A program made the position numbers and the translations under genes. Positions 3,476-29,960 of a stretch of DNA of 64,000 nucleotides are shown here, piece by piece (the first letter of the stretch is position 1; each line of letters begins with the position of its first letter). The notes under the pieces were generated by a model. It had not been told where the DNA came from, did no database searches, and saw only the letters and a program-made list of their open reading frames with translations. Where the stretch lies: NCBI GenBank assembly GCA_000004985.1, contig GG738852.1, one strand, 5' to 3'. The stretch comes from Naegleria gruberi (Eukaryota).

Positions 3476-6400
3476 ATGAATAAATTGCGTTCTGTTGTGT
3501 CAAAGAAGAAACAACGTTACCAAAAGGAAGGTTTTGACCTCGACTTGACGTACATTAGTGATCGTGTCATTAGGTAAGTTTCTACTCGAAAGACAATAGT
3601 TTCGAATAAAGAATAGTATGGGTTTCCCTTCAACAGGTGCAGAAAGTTTGTACAGAAATCCTTTGGAAGAAGTAAAATCCTTTTTCCAGTCCAAACACGA
3701 CGACCACTACAAGATTTATAATTTGTGTTCGGAGAAGAATTATGATCCTAGTGTATTTTCGAATCGTGTTGCTAGGTAAGTTTCGAATAGAATAATAATA
3801 GTAACACCTTTTATAGATTCCCATTTGATGACCACAATGCTCCACATTTTTCATTAATTTTGGATTTTTGTGAAGGTGAGTTTAAAGTTTCGAATTGTTT
3901 GATGGAATTGTATAGATGCTTGTCGTTACTTGATGGAAGATAAACAAAATACTCTTGCTGTTCACTGTAAAGGTAAGTCTAAATTGCTATGAATTCATTC
4001 CATTGACATGTGACTTTAGCCGGCAAAGGAAGAACTGTATGTTTTTCTAATAGTATTTGAAAATTAATGTTTTAACAACAAAAAATATCCATTAACAATT
4101 ATCATCAACACACAACCGATATTTCATCATCAATCATACCAATTATGTCATTGCACAAATTTCTCTCTCAAATAGGGTACTATGGTTTCATCTTTGATGA
4201 TTTATACTGGTTTCTGCTCAACTGCATCCGAAGCTATGGAATTATTTGGTAGAATCAGATGTAATGATTCTAAAGGTGTGACTATTCCTTCTCAGAAGAG
4301 GTAAGTTTTGATGCATTTTTCTTCATTTACTAAAGATTTTCAATGTTAATCATTCGATCATTGTGAAATCTCTGAAATAGATATGTTCAATATTTTGAGG
4401 AATGTGTTGTTCATAGAGGAATGAGATTTCCAACAAAAGATGCGAAAATTACACTCAAAGCTGTTCATATGAATTCAGTTCCACACTTTGATAGAGATGA
4501 AGGAAGTGATCCATACTTTGTCATTCATCAACCTTTCTATGATAAGGAAACAAGAGATAATTATCGTATGGAAAAGTTATTTGATTATTCGGTAAGTTGA
4601 TCATTTTACATAATTTGCTGAAATTCACACAATTTGTAGCAAAATGAAAAAGTTAAACATTTAAAGAAGGGAGAGGAAGTTTGGATTAAAAATTTGAATA
4701 TTGACCTTTCTGGTGACTTTAGAATGATTTTCTATGATATGGATAAAGTCAAGAAGGATGAAAAAATGTTCATGCTTTGGTTGAATACAAACTTTTTACA
4801 CTTGCACCAACCTTACAATTCTTCCAATTCAATTCCACATAGAAAATTTTTGGGTCCTAATGATATTGTTGTTAGAATTCCAAAAGTTGAATTGGATAAA
4901 GCTGTAAAAGACAAGAAGAATCAAGCATTTGATGCTGATTTTTATGTTGACTTGATTATTGAAGTGAAGGAACCAAGTCAATATTCTGAACCACACAAAT
5001 TTGTGTACAATACACCAGACAGTGGAAAGGAATTGTTTGGAGAAATTCAACAATACGCTAAAACTGAAGCTTCAAGCAAGGAAAAGGAAAAAGCCAGAAA
5101 ACAATACGAACAAGGTAGAGAATTCTTTGCATTGAAACAATATTCCAATGCTGTTACATCTTTCTCGAATGCTATTTTGATTGATAGTGGATTTGAGGAA
5201 GCTTACATGTCAAGAGGTTTAGCTAACATGAATTTGAAACGTTTCCCTGAAGCAATTTACGATTTCACAACTGTTTTGAATATTCTGGCTAAGGGAACTA
5301 CAAGTTTGGGTGAAGATATTCCAATTCAAGATAGTATTACAATTACTTTAAGAGCATATCACTCCAGAGGTAAATGTCATACTAAAATGAAGGAATATGA
5401 ATTTGCCATCAAGGATTATGATAGTGCCACTTCAATTTTAGAACATGCTCAACATATTGGAAACGATGGATGTTCTACCACTACTGTATCCAACAATAAT
5501 CACTCTACATCTCCTTTCACTGATTCACTCTTCCAAACATTCTTTAGAGTTTATCTCGATAGAGGTCTCATTAACGATGCTCTTCAAAAATACTCTGACT
5601 GTATTATTGATTATACTAACTTTATCAAATATATGGATCCACTCTCTGAATCTCTAGTTGTTAAATTGAGAGAAGGTAAAATAACTGCAAACAAGTATGA
5701 ACAATACTTGTTTGAATTGTTCCAAGCCTTTTACAATAAGGCAATTGCTATTGGAAAGGTCGATAATTATCCTAACAAGGAAACTCAAGTATTCCATGAC
5801 TTGAACAAGGCAGTTGATTATATTGAAAAGATGTCTGACCCAATTAACAGTCCAGATGCTCTAGTATTTGGTCAAGTCTACCTTGCCAGAGGTGATAGAC
5901 AAACAGATAAGGAAGCTGCCATTAACGATTTCCTTAAATGTCTCTTATATGATAAGACTAACAGGATAGCTACAAAGAGATTGGCTGTTTTACTCTATGA
6001 ACAAAAGCAGTACAAGAGAGCTGTTCTCTATTTTTCAAAACTCATCAAGGATGAACCACAAAATGTCAAAATGCTTACCAATAGAGCTATTTGTTATTTA
6101 AAATTGGAACTTTATGAAAATGCCATTGTTGATTTTAAGGCAGCTCAGAATTTATCACCTGATACTATGAATTTATATGTACAATGTGCCAGATGCTACA
6201 GAAGAAAACACGAACTCTCAGACCCAGCTCAAATACCTCAAAAAGAATTGGAAGATTGTGAAATTCAATATTCAACAGCTATTGATTATCTTCAAAAGAG
6301 AAAGAAGGCAGCTACTCCATCCACTCCAAGCACACCAACTCTCTCTTCATCCTCAACTATTAAGGACGATGATCTTAAAACTCTCTACTTTGAACGTGGT

Positions 6401-6724
6401 ATGACTAGATTCGCTCTGAAAAAATACGAAAGTGCTATTCTCGATTATAGTCATTGTCTTGAACTCGACCCAAATCATTCCCTAGCTCTCTACAATAGAG
6501 CTTACACTCGTCAAAAATTCTTGAAACAATACGACAAGGCCATCACTGACTATGAACAAGTTCTGACCTTCAATTCATCTGATCTAAAGGCACGTCTTGA
6601 AAAGGGATGTTGCCTCTACTATTTAAAGAAAGATGAAGAAGCAATTATGGAATGGCAATTAGTATTGAAAAAAGATCCAAACAATGAAGCTGCCAAAGTG
6701 TATCTTTCCCAATTAGCTAAATAA
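3476..6724 (+). CDS. PTEN-type lipid/protein phosphatase plus C2 domain, fused to a long C-terminal TPR array (8 exons)
   Basis: Exons 3476..3573, 3617..3775, 3817..3875, 3916..3972, 4020..4036, 4176..4300, 4381..4591 and 4640..6724, all joined in frame by GT-AG introns of 43, 41, 40, 47, 139, 80 and 48 nt. The spliced product reads [42 protein letters not shown]...YKIYNLCSE...FPFDDHNAPHF...LAVHCKAGKGRTGTMV...KGVTIPSQKRYVQYF. This is collinear with human PTEN, including the HCKAGKGRTG P-loop. The last exon holds C2-like sequence followed by many 34-aa TPR-like repeats (e.g. AYMSRGLANMNLKRFPEAIYDFTTVLNI). Confidence 0.85.
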
Positions 6725-6808: not shown

Positions 6809-9800
6809 ATGAATAAACGACTAGAGGAATTTTCTCCTAAGCCAGTTGTTCGGAGCAGTAGAACAGCTGCTGCATCATCAAGTAATAGTAATATGGATGC
6901 TGATGATGATCAATTAATGGTAATTGATGAAAAAATCCTTCAAGAATTTAAACAATTTCACTCATCAGAAATGATTGAATATAATTCTAAAAAGTTTATT
7001 GAAAAGTATTGGAGCAATACACAAGAGAAGAACGAAAAGACCATGTATTTGGTAACCTTTTTACGTGATGTGATATATAAAGTACCAGAACATGAAGAAA
7101 AGGAATTACAAGTTTCGGAGAGGACACAAACAAACAGACAAAGATTAGAAGATTTGTTGGGAGGCTTGACCGGAGGAAATACTCCTACCATTAACAATTT
7201 TATGCAGCTATTGTCTGGATTGAGAGATCAACCAATGCCCATCACTACTTATTCTGAAGTTATAGTAAATCCTGATGAAACGGTAGAGATTGGATCCGAT
7301 TGGTTGTCTTGCTTGTTATGTTATGGACAAATGCAAAAGGAAGCACAGTACAAGAGAATATTAACAACAAATAGAGGAGTTTGTGGTAAAACTTGGACAG
7401 TTGGACAAATTGCATTCAAATGTAAAACTTGTCAGATGGATCCAACTTGTGCTATTTGTGAAGAATGTTTCAAGAAGGGAAATCATGAAGGACATGATTA
7501 TTCCATGACTAGAAATTCTAATGGTATGTGTGATTGTGGTGATGTTGAAGCTTGGAGTGTATCAGGTTTTTGTTGTGATCATACTGGAAGAAGTGATCCT
7601 CTGGCCCACTTGACCCCTGATTATTTGGAACTTTTGAAAGCCATCACCAAAGGATTATTCTCTAAAGAGGGTGTCATTAATAATTACATTCGAGAAATTA
7701 CAACCAAGTACAAATCGTTAAAAGATGAAGGTTCCAGAAAAAAGTCATTCCAACTGCAAACTCTCTACCAAAATTTCAAACAAGTTCTAGAAACTGTTTT
7801 GGAAAATTTTGATTCATCACCTTGTCTCAAAAAGTTAGCATATTTGGAACTTAAAGAGTTGAAAAAGGGATCGACGTCTCTAGATGAAATATTACTGAGC
7901 ATACCATCAATGACTCAACCAATCAAGTATTTGTATTCTGATATCTTTATGTCTTTCATAACAGACATTGATTTTAAAACATTTTTCTCGGAGAGATTTA
8001 TTGCTCATTACTCCATAATTATTGAAGACTACAAGGAATATTTGAAAACAAAAAATAAGGAAAATCGTGAAGATGATGAGAGAAAGTCAGTCCACATCTC
8101 TTCTCTTTCTGTTCAGCTATTAACTACTCCAACCGTAGCTGCCCACTTGATAGAAAATTGCAACTTGGTCTCAGTTCTTTTAGATACGTTAATAGAAACT
8201 GTAGAGGATGAATCTATAATGGATGAGACTAGAAATAATAGATTAGTTTATAATCCTGAAGCCAATTCTAAAAAAGTAGAAGCTCTGTATCATATCATTT
8301 TTGATATTAACTATTGTGTTATGCATCAAAAATTCAGTGATCATGTTTTACTCAATGAAGATTGCTACCACAAATTTTTAACATTCCTCTCCTATCTTCA
8401 AGCAACAATTGATATTAATAGAAAAGATAGCGATGACTCTCAATGGTATACGGCCTTCAATTTGGAGATGGGTACTTTACCTAAAATCATTAGATCCATT
8501 ACCAGTTTTATCGAAGGATATGCTAATGATTCAAAATATAAGACTATCCTCCGTCAATTAATTATGAATCTCAGCAAGATCATTTTGGATGATAACTTTG
8601 AAATTGAAACAGATGGTACTGTAAAAGTTAATCCATTCAATATTCCAATTACATACAACTTACCATTGCACAGGTTTGCAACAACCATATTCAAACAATT
8701 AATGTCAATATTCCCAACTGTTTCTCTCAAGTCATCTATTTCTGAAATTTTAGAACAAACATCACCAAACTCGCCACAAGTAACAAATCAATTCTTAATA
8801 CAGTTACTTGAACAGCCACTCAAAATTTTTGTTACTTCAGCCCAAATTACTGCTAGACTTTGGCAAAGAAATCATGAACATAGTAAGTAATTTAAATTTG
8901 AAAATCTTAAGATCAATTTTTCCAGTTCTTGAGCAATCTTATAATTATAATTCTGAAGCTTTTGGTGATTACACCTATTGTAATGACATATTCTTGATTC
9001 AAATTATTAGTGGACTCATGGATAATCATGATTTAATATTTAGAACACTTATCAAAAAGTTCAACAACTCCTTGGATGAATTGAAATTGTTTACCAAGGA
9101 AAAGCTAAAAGAAGATGAAGATAAAAGATCCATTTTGGAAGAAGAGTTTGCAAGACTCTTAGTTTGCATAAGTACCAACAGAGTATTTATGGATTCAATG
9201 AGCAACTTTGATATTTGTAGAAAATATGTTCTTCATTACTTGTTTACTGAGGAAAAATGCAAATTTTCAGATATTGTTTCGGCAGTTCCAAAATCCTTCA
9301 GAGCAGCTGGTATTGATCTCAAAGTTATTGTAAACGAAGTTGCTAATTTCCACAAGCCAAAAGGATCTCACGATCAGGGTTATTTTACTGTAAAATCAAA
9401 TTATTGGGATGAATTGGATCCATACTTTATTGGTATGAGCTCTCAATTATTTTATCAAGCTACAGAACAATACAAGACACAAACAGGGCTAAAACAACCT
9501 CCACCAATTTGTCTGGAAAAGCCAATATTTGCTGCCAATCAACAACTTGAAAGTGGGCTTACAGGATTAATGCTCAGTAATTCACTTTACAAGATAATTT
9601 TCTTTATCATGTATAGAACGATAATTTGGAGAAAGGATTCTAGCCAAGAACAGTTACCAGCTTTTGTTCTTCATTTACTCTTACTCTCACTGAATCATGT
9701 TCCTACTGGTACAGCAGAAGTTTCCCAAATAACTGTTCCTTCTAAACAATCCTTGCTCTCACCAATTAATAGTTATTTGGACATTCCATTTAAAGATGGT

Positions 9801-12080
9801 GAATCTCCAGTCAAGCTCATTCTTCGACCAATAGAAGATAGTGAAGGCAATGAATATTCTATCATTAGAATGCTTTTCGAATTTGGAAATCAAGGTGAAC
9901 TTGTTAATAAGATTTTCAATAGATTGATTGAATTGAACGAAGCTTGTGATAAAATTGTTGTTGAGGCTAGATTAAAGAAAGAAAACACCAGTAATAAGGA
10001 AGAGAAGGAAGCCAAGAAGAAGAGAGCTTTAGCCAATCGTCAAAAATTGTTGGAAAAGATGAATGCCAGTCAGAAAATGTTTGCCCAGAGCTTGGAAGAA
10101 GAGGAAGACACTGTTGACGATTCCGACAAATTGAAATGTGCCCTCTGTCATGACCACAAGTCACCAGAAGGAAACGAGTCTCTTTCTCTCCTCTGCCAAA
10201 TTGTTAACAACCCATTCCCTCAAATCACTAGAAACAAGGAAAATGTATCCCTCTTTGGAAATATTAGAAACAAACCAATTGTTGATATTGGAGAATTAAC
10301 AGAAGCATTTGCTGATGTCAATAAGGAACACAATGTTCAAATTAATTTCTGCTCTCATGCTTGCCATGCCGATTGTTTTGATAGATACTATACAAATCTT
10401 GTTCAAGAAGAATCTAGACGAAGAAGATTTAAAGGTTTTGGTCAAATAGATTTGGAAAGTATGGAAATACTCTGTCCAATTTGTTCTAGAGTGGCAAATT
10501 GTCTCTGCCCAATTGTTTCAAATCATGCCAATTTGCTCCAATCATCCAATTCTGTATCAACAGAATTACCATCACTTGAAACAATCGCTTCATTCATGAA
10601 GGATATTAAGGTTAAGGACAAGGCAGAAGATGTGAAAACTTCCACTACTCTTTCAACTATTTGTGAGAAAATTATTAATAAGAAGAAAGAAGACTTGGGT
10701 GATACTCTCGATCCAATGCCAGTTGATATTGAACCTTTTGAGTTGATTGATTCGGCATACTTTTCCAATACGTTTAGTTCGGAGATCGCTGTAGAGGAAA
10801 TACTTCAAAGAAGTCAACCACATTTACAAGTATTGCCTGAAGCAGTCAGAAAATCCCTCAGCCACGTATTTGGTCTTCTCATTTCATTCCAACAACTTAA
10901 TGAAAAGAATAGAGGAAAGACTCTTCAAGAAATTAATGCAGTAGTTGGTTCAATGATGGGCTTGAAATCCTATGCAAATTTGAGCCTTTATGATGAAGGA
11001 TTTAGAGAAAGAAAGATGTATCTTCCATTCTTGAGTGGAGACATGTTTACACTATTTGTGAGGTTAACAACCTTGCTTTTCTCATCTGAAAGAAAGATGG
11101 ATTCAGCAATGTTCAGAGATTTGTTAATGGTATTCTATACATCACATATCATTCAGATAATTATGCAATGCAACTTGAGACTTCAACAATCATTTAGTAC
11201 AGGCATTCCATCTATTGATAAGGAAATCTCCACAATAGAGAATATTCCAATATTTGAAAGATTTGAACTCAGAACCCTTGAAACTGACATTATTTTATCT
11301 GAAGATGAAATTGCTAAAATGTCCTGCGGTTTCTTAAGAAGAGTTGCTCTGTATTATTCGTTACTTTTCCCAGAAGAAGAAATTCCAACCTCAAGCTCTG
11401 AACATGTAAATTTGACGAATTATCTCCACCTTCCAACAGTAGATAACCTTTTGGTAATGATTAGAGAATCTAACCCTTATTCTGAGTTGATAACTAAATG
11501 GATTGATCAAGTTAAATTGTCCATGCAAAGTCTTTCAAAAGCCCTCAATGAAGAAACACAAGATGAAGATGATGAAGATTTGTATGCTAGTCAAGCTGAT
11601 TCTTTGATACCTTGCTTTGCAACTCCAAAACCTTTCAGCTTTATTGAGCTACCAAGATTATACGAAGATCTCATTCTCAAGCATAACAATGAAAGATGCC
11701 CACTCTGTTCCAAGAAATTGGAAAATCCTGCCATTTGTTTAATCACTGGAGAATTAGTATGGCTGAAGCAATGCACATGTGAGAAGCACATTTGTGGTAA
11801 GCTTACAAGATATACCAGGGAGAAATATTCTGGATTTGGACTCTTCCTTGTTATTAAATCATCGAGAATTTTGCTTATGCACGAAAGTAGATCAGGAATT
11901 TTGCATTCCCCATACCTAGATAGTCATGGAGAAGAAGATAAGAACCTTAAAAGAGGTGTTCCTTTATTCTTCCACAAAGAAAGACTCGATGAAAACATTC
12001 AAAAGTTAGGAAGAATGAATTGGGATCATGATACCATCATTTTGGAAAAATGTTCTAATTTGCAAACTCATGTTTTGTAA
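6809..12080 (+). CDS. UBR1/UBR2-type E3 ubiquitin ligase (N-recognin), 2 exons
   Basis: ORFs 6809..8890 and 8808..12080 join in frame via intron 8883..8925 (gtaagt..ccag, 43 nt, phase 1). UBR-box zinc finger CGKTWTVGQIAFKCKTCQMDPTCAICEECFKKGNHEGHDYSMTRNSNGMCDCGDVEAWSVSGFCCDH. RING-like region CALCHD...CSHACHADCFDRY...CPICSR. Cys-rich C-terminal UBR-type tail (CPLCSKKLENPAICLITGE...). Confidence 0.9.
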
Positions 12081-16677: not shown

Positions 16678-18483
16678 TTAGTAATCATTCCATAATCCAA
16701 TATCCAATTTTTTCTCATTAAGTTCAAATCTTGCACTGTTGTGTCCACAAAGACATTTGCAAATATCATTGAAACAGAATGATTGAATTCCATCAAACAT
16801 ATCTCTTGGAATGATTGGGGAATGATTGGCAATTCCTAGTAAATTTGGAATATCAAAATGCTTTGGAATATTGATATTTAGTGGAGAATCTCTTTCAAGG
16901 TATAAACTAATAATTTGAAGAGCTGTTTCTTTTGTAATTGGTAATTTTCCTGTTTTGAATAGCTCAATATCATACCAAGCTAACATTTGCTCTGGATGGT
17001 AACCTCTTCTTGCAATATCCAAAATTTCTGCATACGCATCTCCTTCTTTTAGTTTGATTGCAACCTCCATTGAAATTTCTTCGCTATTCTTTGAGTCATA
17101 TCTCACAGAATACAAGACAGGAAGGAATATTGTAACAAATTGTTCAATGGTACAATAGAATAACATGCAAGTACCAAAAGGAAAGAAATAGTCAACCAAT
17201 TGGACTATAATATCAATTTGACTAGTAATAATATAAATAAGACAAAAGATGAGTTGGACAACCACTACAGCTAGAGTTTCTTTCTTAATATACCAAATAT
17301 CCTTATCAGTCCTAATAGAAAGAATGACAAATATTGTCTCAATAATTATATAAATAACGGCCTCACATGTAACCAAAATAGAGGTATTCTTCTCCACAGA
17401 ACATCCTCTATCAAATAAAAAGGTTCCTCCATCTACAAAGAAAAGTTTTGTTTCCACAAGCTCATCCGAAACTCCAACTGAGACCCAAAGAGCTACATGT
17501 ATAAAAACAATCAAAATAAGTGCCGGTATTAAGAATTTTGAGCTCAAAAGAAATGAGTAAATTTTGATAAACCTCTTCTTGCGTTCAATGTCCCTGTTTG
17601 ATATTGCAGATGCATTTGTTGTTTTGTTTTCCGAATAAATACTTTGATCATGCATTTCATGTTCATTGCCTAATTCTTTCTGCAATGTAAACAGTTCAAT
17701 TTTTTTCTTACAGAGCTTAAATTTAAAGAAGAGTCTAAAGCATTTGTAAATGGTAGGAAGAAAAATACTTGCAGGAAATAAAAAGTAAATGCTCGAGTAC
17801 AAAATGCATGGAAATGCAGATCTCCCAACTATGAATCTAATACTAAGAATTGATTCAAATATCACATTTCCAGTTAGTGAAAATAATAGAGACAATGGAT
17901 GCCTCTCCTTAATGTGCCTACTCTTCCATTTCCACACTAGGCCAATAAAAGTCAAGAATGTTATCAGTAAATAGATCAAGTAAAATATTGCAGATAGAAT
18001 TGGTGTGAAAATAGTGTCAGGACACAGCCCATAAATCTCTGTAGGCCTCTCCTCTCTCGAATAGCCTCCATTAAACAGAAAAGGATCGCAACTCGTCGCT
18101 ACAGATGCATTATAATTTGGAGTTGTTGAGAGTATGGTATGAAATATTTGGTCCATGTATTCCTTAACTACATGGTCATGCAAGCCTAGATGTTGTGCTA
18201 TTGATTGCACAAACGTATTTTCATTTACAGACGATGATGAAGATGTCAATTCCAAATCATGTTCCGAACAAGTCACAACATTTATCAAAGTACTCATCAA
18301 GGCCACCATTATCAATGTATTTAGAAAAAGCCAGTTAGTTTGTTTCATCTTTTTAAAGCCAAAGTTTATGTTATATTGATGTTGCTGTTGATGTTGTTCT
18401 TCTTTTCGTTGGTGAGTTGATGAAATTGCTTTTGATGTCATTGTGCGTTCATTCTTTTTTTTATGGGATTCAAAAATGTTCAT
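16678..18483 (-). CDS. Seven-transmembrane protein with a C-terminal RGS domain (7TM-RGS)
   Basis: Single ORF. An N-terminal hydrophobic signal-like segment is followed by about seven predicted TM helices (ILSAIFYLIYLLITFLTFIGLVW ... FGTCMLFYCTIEQFVTIFLPVLY). The C-terminal ~130 aa fit the RGS pattern (MLAWYDIELFK....ALQIISLYLERDSPLNINIP....MFDGIQSFCFNDI). Confidence 0.7.
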   Translation of the reverse strand: MNIFESHKKKNERTMTSKAISSTHQRKEEQHQQQHQYNINFGFKKMKQTNWLFLNTLIMVALMSTLINVVTCSEHDLELTSSSSSVNENTFVQSIAQHLGLHDHVVKEYMDQIFHTILSTTPNYNASVATSCDPFLFNGGYSREERPTEIYGLCPDTIFTPILSAIFYLIYLLITFLTFIGLVWKWKSRHIKERHPLSLLFSLTGNVIFESILSIRFIVGRSAFPCILYSSIYFLFPASIFLPTIYKCFRLFFKFKLCKKKIELFTLQKELGNEHEMHDQSIYSENKTTNASAISNRDIERKKRFIKIYSFLLSSKFLIPALILIVFIHVALWVSVGVSDELVETKLFFVDGGTFLFDRGCSVEKNTSILVTCEAVIYIIIETIFVILSIRTDKDIWYIKKETLAVVVVQLIFCLIYIITSQIDIIVQLVDYFFPFGTCMLFYCTIEQFVTIFLPVLYSVRYDSKNSEEISMEVAIKLKEGDAYAEILDIARRGYHPEQMLAWYDIELFKTGKLPITKETALQIISLYLERDSPLNINIPKHFDIPNLLGIANHSPIIPRDMFDGIQSFCFNDICKCLCGHNSARFELNEKKLDIGLWNDY

Positions 18484-18727: not shown

Positions 18728-20491
18728 TTATTCTCTGATTTTCACGTGAGGATGGCTTACATGAACCTGTGTTTTATCTTCGTGTTGCTTCAACAGGCTC
18801 ACAATTTTTGTGTGCCCTTCTGTTAGTGCTATTTCCATTGGTGACTGAATTGTTAATGCTGACCAGAGCTGGCAGACAACTTACCAGCTTTTGGTTGTTT
18901 AAAAAAAGTGTTTCAGAGCCAATAATTTTAAATAGTACTTACTTCATCCTTATTTTGTTATAATGGCTTGTAAGGTGGAGAATACATACATTTTTAAAAA
19001 CCCACTACATAATAGAGCTTTAACATGCTTTGTGTTCCTCAACTTACATCCTTAAATAATCGTAAACATCATGTTGATGTGATTATCACATACGAAACTT
19101 ACAGTCTGCATGTTGTTAAACATCATCACACATGCCAGAAACTTACAAACTTTAGGACGTAAAAACAACATTTAACGGAAAATGGACTTACTTGCTTAAT
19201 AATATCACACAACATTATTTACATCAACATCTTAAATACATACTCCTCTTTTAACATCAACTCCTACAACATTCACTAATAATTGAGGAGTCTTCATCAA
19301 TGCATCCATGTTCAATGTTAAAAAAAGCTTACCTCCTATTACATCTTTCAAATGTAAATATTACAAGAAATACTTACATACTAATAATCAAGGTCATTAA
19401 AATTGATTCTTGAAAGCATGTAAAACATACAATCTATGTACATTTAGAAAATCAAATAAGCTGATCACTTACATCCTACATGGAGTGAGATCACTAATTC
19501 ATACTGCATACTTACATACTGGATGGCAAGTGAGTATTCAAATAACGAACATACGTACAGACTTGAATCATTCAAATAATAAGACTATATACATCGAAAG
19601 GTACTCACATACTATCGGATTATTTAAGTGGAGAAAATGGGAGTAACTTACACTCTGACAAATTGTAAAACAAGTTCAAAAGAAGCTCACTTACTCCTTT
19701 GTTGACATCAATCCTTTTTGATTTTAACAATATTTCTACAATGGCTAAATTTTCACTCTTACATGCAACATGAAGGGGACTCTTTTGATCTGTTAGAATG
19801 TCTTCAATCCATGCTACATACATACTAAACAAAAGGAAGAGACAATGGAACAATACGAATTGGAAATGAAACTTACGTAGTTCTATTAGATTGAAAGTCA
19901 ATTTTCCTTGTCAAAAAATTGAAATTGCTTACATTCTTATTACAATAATATTACAGAATAACAAGGATTGAATCTTACATTTTCCTATTTGGAATACTTC
20001 ATGTAATCTTGATTCTGAACTTACATACTAACATTATTATTTCTGATATATTGTTCAAATGCCTAAGACAACTTACTCCTCTATTTACATCAACTTCATC
20101 CCTTTCCACCAATAGTTTTACTATATTGACATGCCCGAACGTACATGCTGTATGTAAGGGAGACTTTTGAGAGATTAATTTCTGGTCTTTCCTCAAACTA
20201 CACTTACATTCTAATCACGCCAAATTCAATTCCTCAGATTATTGATAACTACGTACAGCCTTTTTAATAGAATCCAGTAAATTTTGATATCCACAAACTT
20301 ACTCCTTTATTTACATCAATTCCTTTTATTCCCAACAGAAATTGTACATAATCTGTATCACCTCTCTCACAAGCCTCAATCAATAATGTTTTCCCTTCAA
20401 CTTCATCATTGATAAAGCTTTCAAAATTCCGAATCTGACAAAATTGATGAAAGTTTCCGCTTCTAAGAATATTGAATGCCTTTTGAGCCAT
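18728..20491 (-). CDS. Ankyrin-repeat protein; predicted 27 exons and 26 introns, including chains of 3-nt micro-exons
   Basis: Clear ANK exons:
- 20303..20491: MAQKAF...GKTLLIEACERGDTDYVQFLLGIKGIDVNKG
- 20077..20163: SPLHTACTFGHVNIVKLLVERDEVDVNRG
- 19695..19781: SPLHVACKSENLAIVEILLKSKRIDVNKG
- 19244..19291: TPQLLVNVVGVDVKRG
- 18728..18844: SPMEIALTEGHTKIVSLLKQHEDKTQ...stop
Each is followed by GTAAGT or GTATGT directly after the ..DV(N/K)xG codon (phase 0). The intervening sequence parses entirely into GT-AG units of 39-55 nt separated by exons of 3, 6 or 15 nt. Exons (615 nt) plus introns (1149 nt) sum exactly to the 1764-nt span. The gene call is solid. Micro-exon usage is inferred from splice signals only. 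Confidence 0.65.
18845..19694 (-). other. Micro-exon linker 3 of the ANK gene: 17 introns (39-55 nt) and 16 small exons
   Basis: Small exons, in minus-strand order:
- AGT 19652..19654
- TAT 19609..19611
- TCT 19559..19561
- TAT 19516..19518
- GAT 19473..19475
- ATT 19431..19433
- TAT 19378..19380
- GAG 19333..19335
- 48-nt half-ANK exon 19244..19291
- CAA 19192..19194
- TTT 19147..19149
- ACT 19103..19105
- GAT 19048..19050
- 15-nt exon 18990..19004
- GATGAA 18943..18948
- CTG 18885..18887
Intron lengths are 40, 40, 47, 40, 40, 39, 50, 42, 41, 49, 42, 41, 52, 43, 41, 55 and 40 nt. Confidence 0.5.
19782..20076 (-). other. Micro-exon linker 2 of the ANK gene: 6 introns (49, 40, 43, 50, 52, 40 nt) and 5 micro-exons
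   Basis: Micro-exons TAT (20025..20027), GAAAAT (19979..19984), AAT (19933..19935), AACTAC (19877..19882) and TAT (19822..19824). Each lies directly between an AG acceptor and a GTAAGT, GTAAGA, GTAAGC or GTATGT donor. The last intron ends ..caaaag, and the next exon starts exactly at SPLH. Confidence 0.5.
20164..20302 (-). other. Micro-exon linker 1 of the ANK gene: 3 introns (43, 46, 44 nt) and 2 micro-exons
   Basis: Minus-strand parse:
- intron gtaagt..aaaaag (20260..20302)
- micro-exon GCT (20257..20259)
- intron gtacgt..gattag (20211..20256)
- micro-exon AAT (20208..20210)
- intron gtaagt..caaaag (20164..20207)
The next exon then starts exactly at SPLH. Confidence 0.5.
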
Positions 20492-23244: not shown

Positions 23245-24630
23245 TTAAATGGATGATCTAGAGGATACACTCTTTCTTGATGTTTGATTTTCCATCATGG
23301 CTTCAATAGCTTGCTTTACCTTATTGTATTGATCTGGATTCTTTTCAAAGTACATTTCCAAAACTCTTGGTTCAGTTTTAGTACCTGGCTTAAAGGTGCA
23401 TGTGAGAATTAATGTTTGATTGAGTGTATCTTCTTCAAGTTCCAAAGTATCAGTGGATGAATTATCATCTTTAGAATGTGGAGCAAAAATAAATTCTTGC
23501 TTGGACAAAAATCCAGATCTTCTATTCAAGAGCAAGAGATCTGTGAAAACGTATAAATCTAAAATACCAGTCTTTCCATTTGATCTCTTATAGTTGACTT
23601 CATTGTCTCCCTCAAAATAATAGAGTAATCTTCTGGTTGGAATGAAAAAGTCCTTCAATTTGAAAGTTTCTCCCAATTCCAAGCTCTTATGAATGTTAGA
23701 ATATTCAAGTTGTCTATTATTCAATTCTGATGCAATTTCCTTAATGAGACTCAATGCATTCTCAATCAATACAAATGATTCATCATTATGATCAGTAAAT
23801 TCTTTCAATTGTTGTAATAAGAGTTGATATCTTGGAATTCTCTGAAGTGGCAATACAAGATGTCCATCAATGGTAAAATCTGATGATACAGTAGCCTCAT
23901 CACTCAATTTCTCTGCAATTTTATCCAACATTTTTCTCAATTTTCCATTCTTTTTCTTTTCCTCTTCAAGTGTTGAAACAGCAATTCCATAATTTCCAAT
24001 AAATCTCGTATAAAGTTTAAAAGAGTGAGCATAATGTAACATTAACTTGGCAACAGCTAGACAGGACAATCCATCAACTCCAAAATAAATCTTTTTCAAT
24101 TCTTGGAGGAAATTCTCATTAACACCCTTAATAATAGCAATATCATTAAATATTAAATCAAATGTTTCCTTTTGAAGAATTTCCTTGATTGGTTTCAAAT
24201 AATTTTCTTCCAAAGTTCTCAAACCTTTAACATAGCTCTCTTCAGTGGTCAAAATTTCTTCCAAAATTCGATCTCTTTTCTTTTCGATTGGTGACTTTTC
24301 AATAACCATTTTAATGTCATCAACCATTTCATCATCATTAATTGTTGTATTCATAATTTCATCAAAAATACTTTCATTACTCTTGACTGTTAAACTATCT
24401 TCTCTGGAGTGTTTCTTTGCAGGTGATGATAAATCTTCCTTGATCAAATTGTCAGTTGACATTTTGACTGGCATCTCCTTCTTCACAACTTCGGCTTCTT
24501 GTTCATCAAATAAATTATTATCAGCTTGTTGATTATTGGTTGATGATGTCTCGCTGGCTTGCTTGTAATACATCAAGACACCAGTCACTATCAACACCAG
24601 CACGTAGAATAATACTTCGAGTAATAACAT
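23245..24630 (-). CDS. RhoGEF (Dbl-homology plus PH-like) protein with an N-terminal TM anchor
   Basis: DH motifs RDRILEEILTTEESYVKGLRTLEENYLKPI and LVLPLQRIPRYQLLLQQLKEFT, followed by a PH-like C-terminal region. The track start at 24648 is TTG. The genuine ATG at 24630-24628 follows an A-run and gives MLLLEVLFYVLVLIVTGVLMYY (TM). Confidence 0.8.
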   Translation of the reverse strand: MLLLEVLFYVLVLIVTGVLMYYKQASETSSTNNQQADNNLFDEQEAEVVKKEMPVKMSTDNLIKEDLSSPAKKHSREDSLTVKSNESIFDEIMNTTINDDEMVDDIKMVIEKSPIEKKRDRILEEILTTEESYVKGLRTLEENYLKPIKEILQKETFDLIFNDIAIIKGVNENFLQELKKIYFGVDGLSCLAVAKLMLHYAHSFKLYTRFIGNYGIAVSTLEEEKKKNGKLRKMLDKIAEKLSDEATVSSDFTIDGHLVLPLQRIPRYQLLLQQLKEFTDHNDESFVLIENALSLIKEIASELNNRQLEYSNIHKSLELGETFKLKDFFIPTRRLLYYFEGDNEVNYKRSNGKTGILDLYVFTDLLLLNRRSGFLSKQEFIFAPHSKDDNSSTDTLELEEDTLNQTLILTCTFKPGTKTEPRVLEMYFEKNPDQYNKVKQAIEAMMENQTSRKSVSSRSSI

Positions 24631-24752
24631 TTTTTTCTTCTGCGCCAATTTAATATCCTAAATTTACTTTTAAAGGAAGAAACTTGTCAGCATTCGAATA
24701 ATTGTTATCTGCTTAACCTACCACACGAGTTTGAACTATTTTGGTTATTGAA

Positions 24753-27620: not shown

Positions 27621-29960
27621 ATGTTATCATTTACTTCTATTCAATTACAAAAGAATTTTAATTCCATCCAAGAAAATTTAATGACAAGGAATATACTATT
27701 AACTCCTGGAGAGACGATTCAAATTAATTCTCAAGTATTTTCAGTGAATTTATATTCATCATCGGATCAAAATAATTTAAATGATGAATTTCAAAAATCA
27801 ATTAGTGGACAAGTAGAAAACACAGAATTTATTCAATGTAAAGATCATTTGTTTACAATTGATAATTTATTACACGCTGATGAGTGTAGAGAAATTTTAC
27901 GCATGGAAGATTCCATTTACTTTACACCAATTTCGTCCGAATATCCTGAAGAGTATAGAAATAGCAAACGAATTGTTTATAATGATAAAGAACTTTCACA
28001 GAGATTATGGCGACGATTGAAAAAGTTTCTAGTTGATTGCAATTTCATGAAACCGTATGGTTTAGACACGGATGGATATTGGATTCCAATTGGTGTGAAT
28101 GAATGTTTGAGATTGAGTAAATATGAACCAGGGAATTATTTCAAACCTCACACAGATGGTCAATTTCTCAGAAATGATAATGAGAGAAGTATTTATACTT
28201 TACTAATCTATTTGAACGATGATTTTAAAGGAGGAGAAACCGAATTCTTACAAAGAGTAGATCCAACAGAGGAGTCTATCACCAAATTCAAACATATTTG
28301 TGCAATTAATCCAAGAATGGGATCTGCTGCAATATTTAATCATGAATTGTATCATCAGGGATGTATGGTCACTTCAGGGATCAAGTATATTTTGAGAACT
28401 GAGATAATGTTCAAGAGAATTGATTCAACAGAACAATTGGTGAATAAGAAGAATGATTTGCTTCACAATCAAATTATGAATCTCTTGAAAACAAGTGATG
28501 ATCTAGAAAAGAAAGGTGAAGTGATGGAATCTACCTATTACTATAGAAAAGCACAAGAGCTGTTAATTCAATATGGACATTCCACCTCATTATTGCTGGT
28601 ACCTACCTTTTCCAAGTCAAAAATCAGTTCCGAAGATTATTCTCTGAAAAGTACATTTTCTCAATTACCTGATGAGCTACTCATTCACATTTTCAAATAT
28701 TTGATGGATTGGGAAATTTGCCAACTCATTCTTCCACTCGATAGGTATTTCAATTATATTGGCAGAGACTTACAATTATGGGAATGGATGTATATGAACA
28801 AATGGGGAAATTCTATCACAAATTTATTGAAACAATTTAATGCAAGAAATACTGAGGAACTAAGAGAATTCAATTCACAAGACAATACGAGCTCACTTGA
28901 GGAAACACCAGCTGAGGAACAAGATTGGTTTCATATCTATATTATGAAACGTTATTTTGAAAAGGAATTTGAGCCAGTCTTTATTGATTATGGAAGTAAC
29001 CTATATGCAAACACCTATTTTTCATCAATTGATGGTCCTGTTCAAACTACTTTAACTAAAGTTCTTAGACCTCCAGCCTCTCAGTAAGTATTTCTATAGT
29101 TCATCTAGTTGATGACCATTATTTCAGCTTTTCACTTCCAAGATTTTCTTCTTATGGATTAATGGGAGATAATATTGATAGAGGACGTACTATAGATATG
29201 TTTGATGGTAATGGATTTAAAAAGCATATTCAAGTATTCACCTTTTTAATATACAAGAAAATGAAAAAGAGTTGTCAACGAAATCCACTTGTTGTCAGCT
29301 TGAATTCTAGAGCAATGGTTGACTTTGCAAAGGTCAAGGAAAGTATTTTGAATTTTTTGGTAAGTAGTATTGAAAATTCAACTATTAAATAATGTGAAAT
29401 AGTTCAGAATTCGTATTCCAGCCGTTTGCATTCTTCCAAGATGTTATCTATTGTCAATTTATTATAATCTTCCAACTTGCATAGTAGTGGATATTGGCAA
29501 ATATGATATTTATGTTCATACAGTTATTCAACATGATAAGGATCAAATAGGTACATTACATGCTGAATTTGATATTTATGGATCAAGTATCAACTTGTTC
29601 GAAACAGCTCAATCTACTGAAGAAAAAATCAAGTACATTGAAAATTGTGAAATTACTAAAGCCATTAATCAATTATTAGATCAGCATCCAAAAGAACTGA
29701 GAGCAGAATTGTTGGATAATATTATTTTCTCTGGAAATCTTGTGGAAATGGAATCATTATCAGACGTTCAACATGAAAGGAATCAAATTCTTAACATGTT
29801 CAATTCACCACATTCCACCTATCGAGTGAAACATCAAACGAGTGGTGAGGAGGCCATTCAGTCAGCCATTAATTTCTCAAAACTTCCAAACTTTAAAGAT
29901 TATTGCTCTTTCTGGTTTGATTGTGAAAAGATTGTTGAGTCAAAAGACACATTTATTTAA
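27621..29960 (+). CDS. Fusion protein: prolyl-4-hydroxylase-like 2OG-Fe(II) oxygenase, F-box and divergent actin-fold (ARP-like) domain (3 exons)
   Basis: Exons 27621..29083, 29128..29359 and 29403..29960 join in frame through introns 29084..29127 (44 nt) and 29360..29402 (43 nt).
- Oxygenase core: LRLSKYEPGNYFKPHTDGQF (HxD)...YTLLIYLNDDFKGGETEF...HELYHQG...KYILRTEIMF.
- F-box: LPDELLIHIFKYLMDWEICQLI.
- Actin-like C-terminus: VFIDYGSNLYANTYF (phosphate-1 DxGS), NPLVVSLNSRAMVDFAKVKESILNFLFRIRIPAVCILPRCYLLSIYYNLPTCIVVDIGKYDIYVHTVI (phosphate-2 DxG), collinear with actin. Confidence 0.75.

Follow-up and report, generated by a model that had tools for sequence, protein, structure and literature searches.

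Proteins in which a seven-transmembrane (7TM) bundle and an RGS domain (for "regulator of G-protein signaling") are joined in one chain were first described in Arabidopsis, where AtRGS1 accelerates GTP hydrolysis on a self-activating Gα subunit and is uncoupled from Gα by sugar-induced phosphorylation and endocytosis (PMC3386157, PMC3718340). Such 7TM-RGS proteins are widespread in bikonts and are also present in some early-branching opisthokonts (PMC3971589). Naegleria fowleri possesses 28 7TM-RGS genes, and the proteins Nf 7TM RGS1-4 have been studied (Bosch et al., J Biol Chem 2022, PMC9283941). The RGS domains of 7TM RGS2-4 speed GTP hydrolysis on Nf Gα2, Gα3, Gα5, and Gα7, of which Gα5 and Gα7 are self-activating (PMC9283941). 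For Naegleria gruberi, more than 30, or 44, Gα genes and 229 RGS genes have been reported (PMC5784254, PMC8584482). Here, we describe a gene of this type on the reverse strand of N. gruberi contig GG738852.1, located at positions 16678-18483 of an analyzed stretch of 64,000 nucleotides, which is referred to as the window in the following. Its product ends in a tail that shares homology with bona fide RGS domains and for which an RGS4-like fold is predicted, and the protein very probably belongs to the 7TM-RGS family.

The open reading frame (ORF) starts with ATG, comprises 601 codons (601 amino acids) and includes its stop codon within the limits 16678-18483 (-). An uninterrupted ORF with exactly these limits had been claimed in an earlier reading of the bare DNA (the original prediction), and this was confirmed. 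The window has a G+C content of 33%. Calculated from its stop-triplet frequency of 0.0616, the chance of a 601-codon open stretch is about 2.5e-17, which rules out a chance ORF. When 1.84 billion representative proteins were searched exhaustively with HMMER, 166 homologs of the ORF product reached E ≤ 1e-3, of which 53 also reached E ≤ 1e-30. The homologs were typically 30-37% identical, and the homology covered both the 7TM region and the tail. The gene is intact.

The membrane topology of the protein was analyzed by a Kyte-Doolittle hydropathy scan with a 19-residue window and by structure prediction. Besides an N-terminal hydrophobic segment, the hydropathy profile contained seven additional peaks within residues 152-457. 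An AlphaFold2 model, for which 46 family members were aligned (the ORF product and 45 homologs), had a mean predicted local distance difference test score (pLDDT) of 80.6 and a predicted template modeling score (pTM) of 0.74, with most of the bundle above a pLDDT of 90. It placed the transmembrane (TM) helices at residues 159-184, 196-219, 226-245, 318-342, 365-390, 399-422, and 437-465, so that the bundle as a whole extends over residues 159-465 (17089-18009, -). TM3 is prolonged in the model as a long cytosolic helix up to residue 278, and a further cytosolic helix starting at residue 290 precedes TM4 (modeled helices 226-278 and 290-342). The second intracellular loop (ICL2; residues 246-317, 17533-17748, -) is long, and it is basic and of variable length across the family alignment. 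Lysine and arginine account for 5 of 11 residues in ICL1, 16 of 72 in ICL2, and 2 of 8 in ICL3, compared to 1 of 6, 2 of 22, and 0 of 14 in the extracellular loops ECL1, ECL2, and ECL3, respectively. These charges fit the positive-inside rule for an orientation with the N-terminus outside and the C-terminus inside the cell, and the 140-residue C-terminal tail with the RGS box is therefore predicted to be cytosolic; an odd number of helices following an extracellular N-terminus likewise puts it inside. About seven TM helices had been proposed originally, and hydropathy and model agreed with this number. A helix count far below seven, which had been named as an argument against the proposal, was not obtained; the topology comprised seven helices plus the N-terminal segment.

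The identity of the tail was less evident from direct profile searches. The full-length protein gave no match to the Pfam RGS profile (PF00615), even at E ≤ 10. When the tail was searched alone, PF00615 was the top match, with an E-value of 0.13 and a score of 13.1 bits compared to the gathering score of 23.9 bits, and the match was restricted to profile positions 26-71 of 117. Judged by the gathering score, neither the full protein nor the tail qualifies as a member of the Pfam RGS family. A phmmer search of the ORF product against PDB sequences retrieved no match, and BLASTP of the tail against the RGS4 sequence was not significant, though the register was correct. The original prediction had made a significant match to the RGS profile its own test and had regarded the lack of one as decisive against it; on this count it formally fails, and it is rescued only by family profiles in a leave-one-out design and by the fold search.

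All 45 aligned homologs matched the Pfam RGS profile at E ≤ 0.01, the best one with 1.4e-14. A search of PDB sequences with the profile of the family alignment gave 35 matches, all of them RGS domains, with RGS10 in first place (5e-14) and the whole domain aligned. We also constructed a hidden Markov model (HMM) from the 45 homolog tails, from which the ORF sequence was left out to avoid circularity. This model recognized the tail of the ORF product with 71 bits and an E-value of 3.7e-24 in a single comparison. By homology to recognized RGS domains, the tail is a member of the RGS family. It also shows the all-helical RGS fold in the predicted structure, and its best structural match was the canonical GTPase-activating protein (GAP) RGS4 in its Gα-bound form, not one of the RH or rgRGS domains. 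The alignments behind the structural models were dominated by canonical relatives, and the RGS fold therefore partly reflects the family rather than the sequence of the ORF itself. Based on the family profiles and the fold comparison, the tail is a genuine but divergent RGS domain, which covers residues 471-592 (16708-17073, -). The proposed RGS-like domain behind the TM helices was thus borne out by these two lines of evidence and not by the direct Pfam scan.

A score below the Pfam gathering threshold was not restricted to the ORF product. Two of ten relatives with individual scores remained below it as well, P0123 with 19.5 bits and P0101 with 17.9 bits. Screening or censuses based on the Pfam threshold undercount the heterolobosean 7TM-RGS family. 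A word-indexed protein search returned nothing for either the ORF product or the family alignment, though N. gruberi paralogs are present in the same collection; we treated this null result as a failure of the index and as uninformative for a low-complexity, AT-rich proteome.

To map individual residues, the tail was aligned with the family, with RGS10 as obtained from the PDB match, and with RGS4. The column equivalent to E87 of RGS4 contains glutamate in 45 of 45 relatives and is retained in the ORF product as E498 (codon 16990-16992, -). The equivalent of N128 in the catalytic loop, which is asparagine in 44 of 45 relatives, is retained as N538 (codon 16870-16872, -). The equivalent of N88 is Q499. 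Three further columns are changed in the ORF product: E126 (glutamate in 38 of 45 relatives) corresponds to N536, D163 (aspartate in 40 of 45) to K576, and R167 (arginine in 43 of 45) to G580, the codons for K576-G580 being located at 16744-16758 (-). D163 and R167 of RGS4 line the pocket receiving Thr182 of switch I of Giα1. The roles of the RGS4 residues reportedly go back to the RGS4-Giα1 structure of Tesmer and colleagues from 1997.

The exchanges at D163 and R167 lie in a segment that is altered as a whole, since the terminal helix of the family, TDLFERLK, is replaced by CKCLCGHNSARF in the ORF product. An intron or a frameshift restoring TDLFERLK was considered and rejected, as none of the three frames downstream of residue 560 encodes this helix. 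An alternative alignment with a 5-residue insertion places H581 opposite the family aspartate and R585-F586 opposite the family R-F pair. Since this gapped alignment restores the R-F pair, the loss of the arginine is not certain. No confident alignment is possible for the terminal segment, at which the alignment to the tail HMM ends.

We then compared the ORF product with its 19 closest relatives and used the identities among these relatives as a baseline. In the 7TM core, the ORF product was 35.3% identical to the relatives, compared to 36.9% among the relatives themselves, and 13 of 14 family-conserved columns were kept. For the whole RGS domain, the corresponding values were 28.5% and 42.6% (standard deviation 3.3), and only 9 of 15 family-conserved columns were kept, compared to a median fraction of 0.92 and a 10th percentile of 0.70 in the family. 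The difference was smaller in the N-terminal two-thirds of the RGS domain (36.1% versus 48.6%) and largest in its C-terminal third (19.5% versus 40.4%). Judged from these alignments, it is the RGS domain alone that has diverged, and the 7TM core is as well conserved as in the relatives.

A Foldseek search with the full-length model returned two main groups, RGS domains and class C G-protein-coupled receptor (GPCR) bundles, while a few class A receptors ranked lower. With two domains competing in a single query, the E-values were weak, at 5e-3 or worse. The 7TM fold of the predicted structure was nearest to solved class C receptors. The Pfam profile 7tm_3 was not matched by the ORF product in scans of the full protein or the tail; two of the 45 relatives matched it. 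One of these two, the protein P0113 of Pharyngomonas kirbyi, passed both cut-offs, with 41.1 bits for 7tm_3 (cut-off 33.5 bits, E-value 2.2e-10) and 54.9 bits for RGS, and it could be aligned to the ORF product from TM1 into the RGS domain (phmmer E-value 1.1e-11, BLASTP 1e-19). A Venus-flytrap or cysteine-rich extracellular module was not found in the ORF product, whose ectodomain has only about 85 residues without a recognized Pfam domain. Some class C orphan receptors likewise lack such a module. With moderate confidence, we assign the bundle to a class C GPCR-like type.

The short extracellular N-terminal region (residues 73-158; 18010-18267, -) had a low to moderate pLDDT. As seen from the family consensus and the N-termini of the relatives, it contains a single NxS sequon at N125 and, directly before TM1, the family motif C-D/H-P-x-L-F...S-R-E...G-L-C-P-D. 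Residues 1-45 of the ORF product are hydrophilic and of low complexity. They are followed by Met46 at position 18348 in the context AAAAAGATG and by a signal-peptide-like stretch, MKQTNWLFLNTLIMVALMSTLINVVTC|SEHD, where the bar marks the predicted cleavage site. Met46 and this hydrophobic segment together cover residues 46-72 (18268-18348, -); the hydropathy peak lies at about residues 49-70, and AlphaFold2 predicted a helix with low confidence at residues 49-71. Met46 is a possible true start, in which case the segment would be a cleaved signal; if Met1 is used, it might serve as a signal anchor. The orientation of the seven helices is the same with either start. Most relatives have shorter N-termini that lack the signal-peptide-like segment, but a Cys...CPD motif in front of TM1 is common to them.

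Every named relative was heterolobosean: paralogs of N. gruberi itself and proteins of N. lovaniensis, Willaertia magna, Acrasis kona, and Pharyngomonas kirbyi; the remaining ones came from environmental assemblies. An ortholog with more than about 37% identity was not found in the homolog search, except for a fragment of 97 amino acids (P0027, from a Logan/ENA contig) that is 96% identical to residues 1-97 (18184-18483, -). Its differences are S6P, E88Q, and the in-frame loss of two codons (GF) upstream of Met46, and it probably derives from another N. gruberi-like strain. The fragment remains in frame across the two-codon deletion and shows that a second strain also possesses the 5′ portion of the ORF. 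In the public databases, the locus is represented by NAEGRDRAFT_63794 (XP_002680843.1, D2V5E5), a model of 162 amino acids (16678-17166, -) that is 100% identical to residues 440-601. It begins inside TM7, omits the receptor part, and has no detectable domain. Since the public model is a fragment of this kind, domain-based censuses of G-protein components will have missed the gene. It represents one unrecognized addition to the Naegleria 7TM-RGS repertoire, and the locus needs to be re-annotated.

What the protein does can be judged from its relatives and from the residues that it has kept or lost. In our opinion, the ORF product is probably a divergent paralog of a receptor-like family found throughout the Heterolobosea, in which a class C-like bundle with a C-terminal RGS domain forms a membrane-tethered regulator of Gα. 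By analogy with the N. fowleri 7TM-RGS proteins and AtRGS1, the seven helices would hold the RGS box at the membrane, where it would bind the GTP-bound or transition-state form of one or more Naegleria Gα subunits and speed GTP hydrolysis. A signal sensed by the 7TM region or the ectodomain might then alter the braking by the RGS box, either its access to GTP-bound Gα or its activity on it. That the tail binds Gα and acts as a GAP is inferred from the precedents in N. fowleri and plants, and also from the retention of E498 and N538. Several of the results described above weigh against this reading: the Pfam scores below the gathering threshold, the share of the family in the predicted fold, the exchanges at the positions of E126, D163, and R167, and the decreased identity and column conservation of the RGS domain, in particular of its C-terminal third. 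As the helix carrying the D163 and R167 equivalents is rewritten, an altered and probably narrower or weaker Gα specificity is to be expected rather than that of a standard GAP, and with two of the best-conserved residues of the Gα pocket lost, GAP activity is not assured. We lean slightly towards a tail that still binds a Gα subunit, whereas for a tail that is still an efficient GAP the chances seem to be somewhat below even.

The same exchanges could mean that the 7TM part has remained under constraint while the RGS box has lost canonical Gα recognition and GAP activity and has taken on the role of a scaffold, of an effector-like Gα binder comparable to GRK or rgRGS domains, or of a docking site for another partner, so that the protein would behave as a class C-like receptor rather than as a receptor-GAP. 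This is possible, but we do not favor it, as E498 and the catalytic-loop residue N538 are kept and the best structural match was the canonical GAP RGS4 in its Gα-bound form instead of an RH or rgRGS domain. Moreover, the loss of the arginine is uncertain in view of the alignment with the 5-residue insertion, which restores R585-F586, and 30-44 Gα paralogs in the genome make co-evolved atypical interfaces plausible. A more specific form of this idea, which we consider rather unlikely, is a natural pseudo-GAP with a conserved receptor half and a remodeled switch I pocket (K instead of D, G instead of R) that binds Gα in an effector-like manner or binds another partner and no longer switches Gα off. 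If true, a receptor-GAP would here have become a different type of receptor within a large expansion specific to the lineage. Very unlikely, in our view, is a decaying or non-functional paralog, or a locus that in reality gives rise to no more than the public 162-residue C-terminal protein. The public model, which covers residues 440-601 only, the fast evolution of the RGS box, and the lack of an ortholog above about 37% identity besides the fragment from the near-identical strain would be in line with it. A start inside TM7 makes no structural sense, however, and the 439 codons upstream of it align with the ectodomain motif and all seven helices of the family with 13 of 14 conserved columns kept; a 601-codon frame would hardly be open by chance in DNA of 33% G+C (about 2.5e-17), and the fragment from the second strain stays in frame across its indel. 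Finally, the RGS resemblance could be a chance similarity of a helical tail, the protein being a 7TM protein with an unrelated C-terminus. The full protein indeed had no Pfam RGS match and the tail one of E = 0.13 only, BLASTP to the RGS4 sequence was not significant, and the RGS matches in the Foldseek search with the full-length model reached E-values of only about 0.02. In view of the family-based searches, we regard this explanation as extremely improbable and, to our satisfaction, already refuted. We therefore retain a divergent, membrane-tethered Gα regulator as the preferred interpretation. With its divergence limited to the RGS box and its 7TM core conserved, the protein is a reasonable candidate for studying a change in Gα specificity or a loss of GAP function among dozens of Gα paralogs.

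The search for Gα subunits and further 7TM-RGS paralogs that had been suggested along with the original prediction was successful in part. N. gruberi paralogs were present among the homologs, but neither a Gα gene nor a second family member was found in the 64-kb window by tblastn with the ORF product, tblastn with a GNAI1 sequence, and a six-frame hmmsearch with the HMM of the family tails. The window is gene-dense, and its genes are typical of eukaryotes, among them those for a UBR-type N-recognin, a RhoGEF, a major facilitator superfamily (MFS) transporter, and F-box proteins. Two further ORFs of the window, one of which is the direct neighbor of the 7TM-RGS gene, had exact matches in N. 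gruberi, on a scaffold of 938,756 bp, and thereby confirm the source of the DNA. The RhoGEF gene (DH domain; 23245-24648, -) is located about 5 kb from the 7TM-RGS gene. In N. fowleri, an RGS-RhoGEF is a Gα effector. A domain scan of the ORF at 23245-24648 revealed no RGS domain, and no evidence for a functional link between this gene and the 7TM-RGS gene was found. Directly upstream of the latter and on the same strand, coding segments for ankyrin repeats are present at about 18730-19900 (-), which are interrupted by stops, probably introns. As the ankyrin-repeat gene ends about 250 nucleotides before Met1 of the 7TM-RGS protein, it is a separate gene. The overlapping ORFs 6809-8890 (+), with a zf-UBR box, and 8808-12080 (+), with a UBR1 winged-helix domain and PRT6_C, look like one gene for a UBR1/PRT6-type N-recognin that is split by an intron or a change of frame near 8808-8890. 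In the single ORF at 27621-29087 (+), a 2OG-Fe(II) oxygenase domain and an F-box-like motif occur together, an unusual combination. Another ORF, 4694-6724 (+), listed with a TTG start, encodes a PTEN C2 domain and, behind it, many TPR repeats; upstream exons, possibly for the phosphatase domain, probably belong to it.

Compared to known systems, the kind of protein described here and its implication for G-protein signaling in Naegleria are not new. The original prediction had expected such a protein to say something about how G-protein signaling is wired in this organism; Naegleria indeed relies heavily on 7TM-RGS proteins, but this had already been published (PMC9283941, PMC5784254, PMC8584482), and the established picture of their extensive use remains unchanged. 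Specific to this locus are an annotation that is cut short and an RGS box that has diverged to an unusual degree. The closest described counterparts are the 7TM-RGS proteins of N. fowleri, which belong to the same genus and share the seven TM helices and the C-terminal RGS domain; by analogy, a membrane-tethered GAP for Gα subunits, including self-activating ones, would be expected here as well. In the N. fowleri proteins studied, the ectodomains are large and carry EGF-like repeats, lectin domains, and GPS motifs, compared to about 85 extracellular residues in the ORF product, whose RGS box in addition remains below the Pfam threshold and lacks the D and R of the family in the last helix.

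With AtRGS1, the ORF product shares an N-terminal 7TM region fused to a cytosolic RGS box and thereby a layout in which signaling is controlled at the deactivation step. The likeness is one of architecture, the bundle of the ORF product being class C GPCR-like, and the regulators of AtRGS1, phosphorylation by WNK8 and sugar-induced endocytosis, are not known in Naegleria. Of the proposed receptor-GAP of the AtRGS1 type, the succession of 7TM region and RGS domain in one ORF holds, whereas the GAP activity is uncertain. The settings differ, too, since the plant has one Gα and one RGS protein and N. gruberi dozens of Gα and hundreds of RGS genes. To the canonical R4-type RGS proteins (RGS4, RGS10, RGS16), the tail is about 15% identical; their SEEN motif reads HPEQ in the ORF product, when no gaps are introduced, K and G take the places of D163 and R167, and the terminal helix has been rewritten.

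The class C-like bundle is an observation at the level of the family; its parallel to an animal class C receptor that works with an RGS protein was not found in the accessible literature, which did not include Anantharaman et al. (2011). For the class C-like bundle, the counterparts in known systems are the class C GPCRs, especially the orphans GPR158 and GPR179, to which RGS7-Gβ5 is recruited (PDB 7ewp, 7shf; PMC8611064). The animal class C orphan GPR158 recruits RGS7-Gβ5 as a separate protein (PMC8611064). By analogy, the heterolobosean family would be the single-chain counterpart of the animal GPR158-RGS7 pair, and a class C-like bundle would tie these protist receptor-GAPs structurally to the animal class C receptors that recruit RGS proteins.

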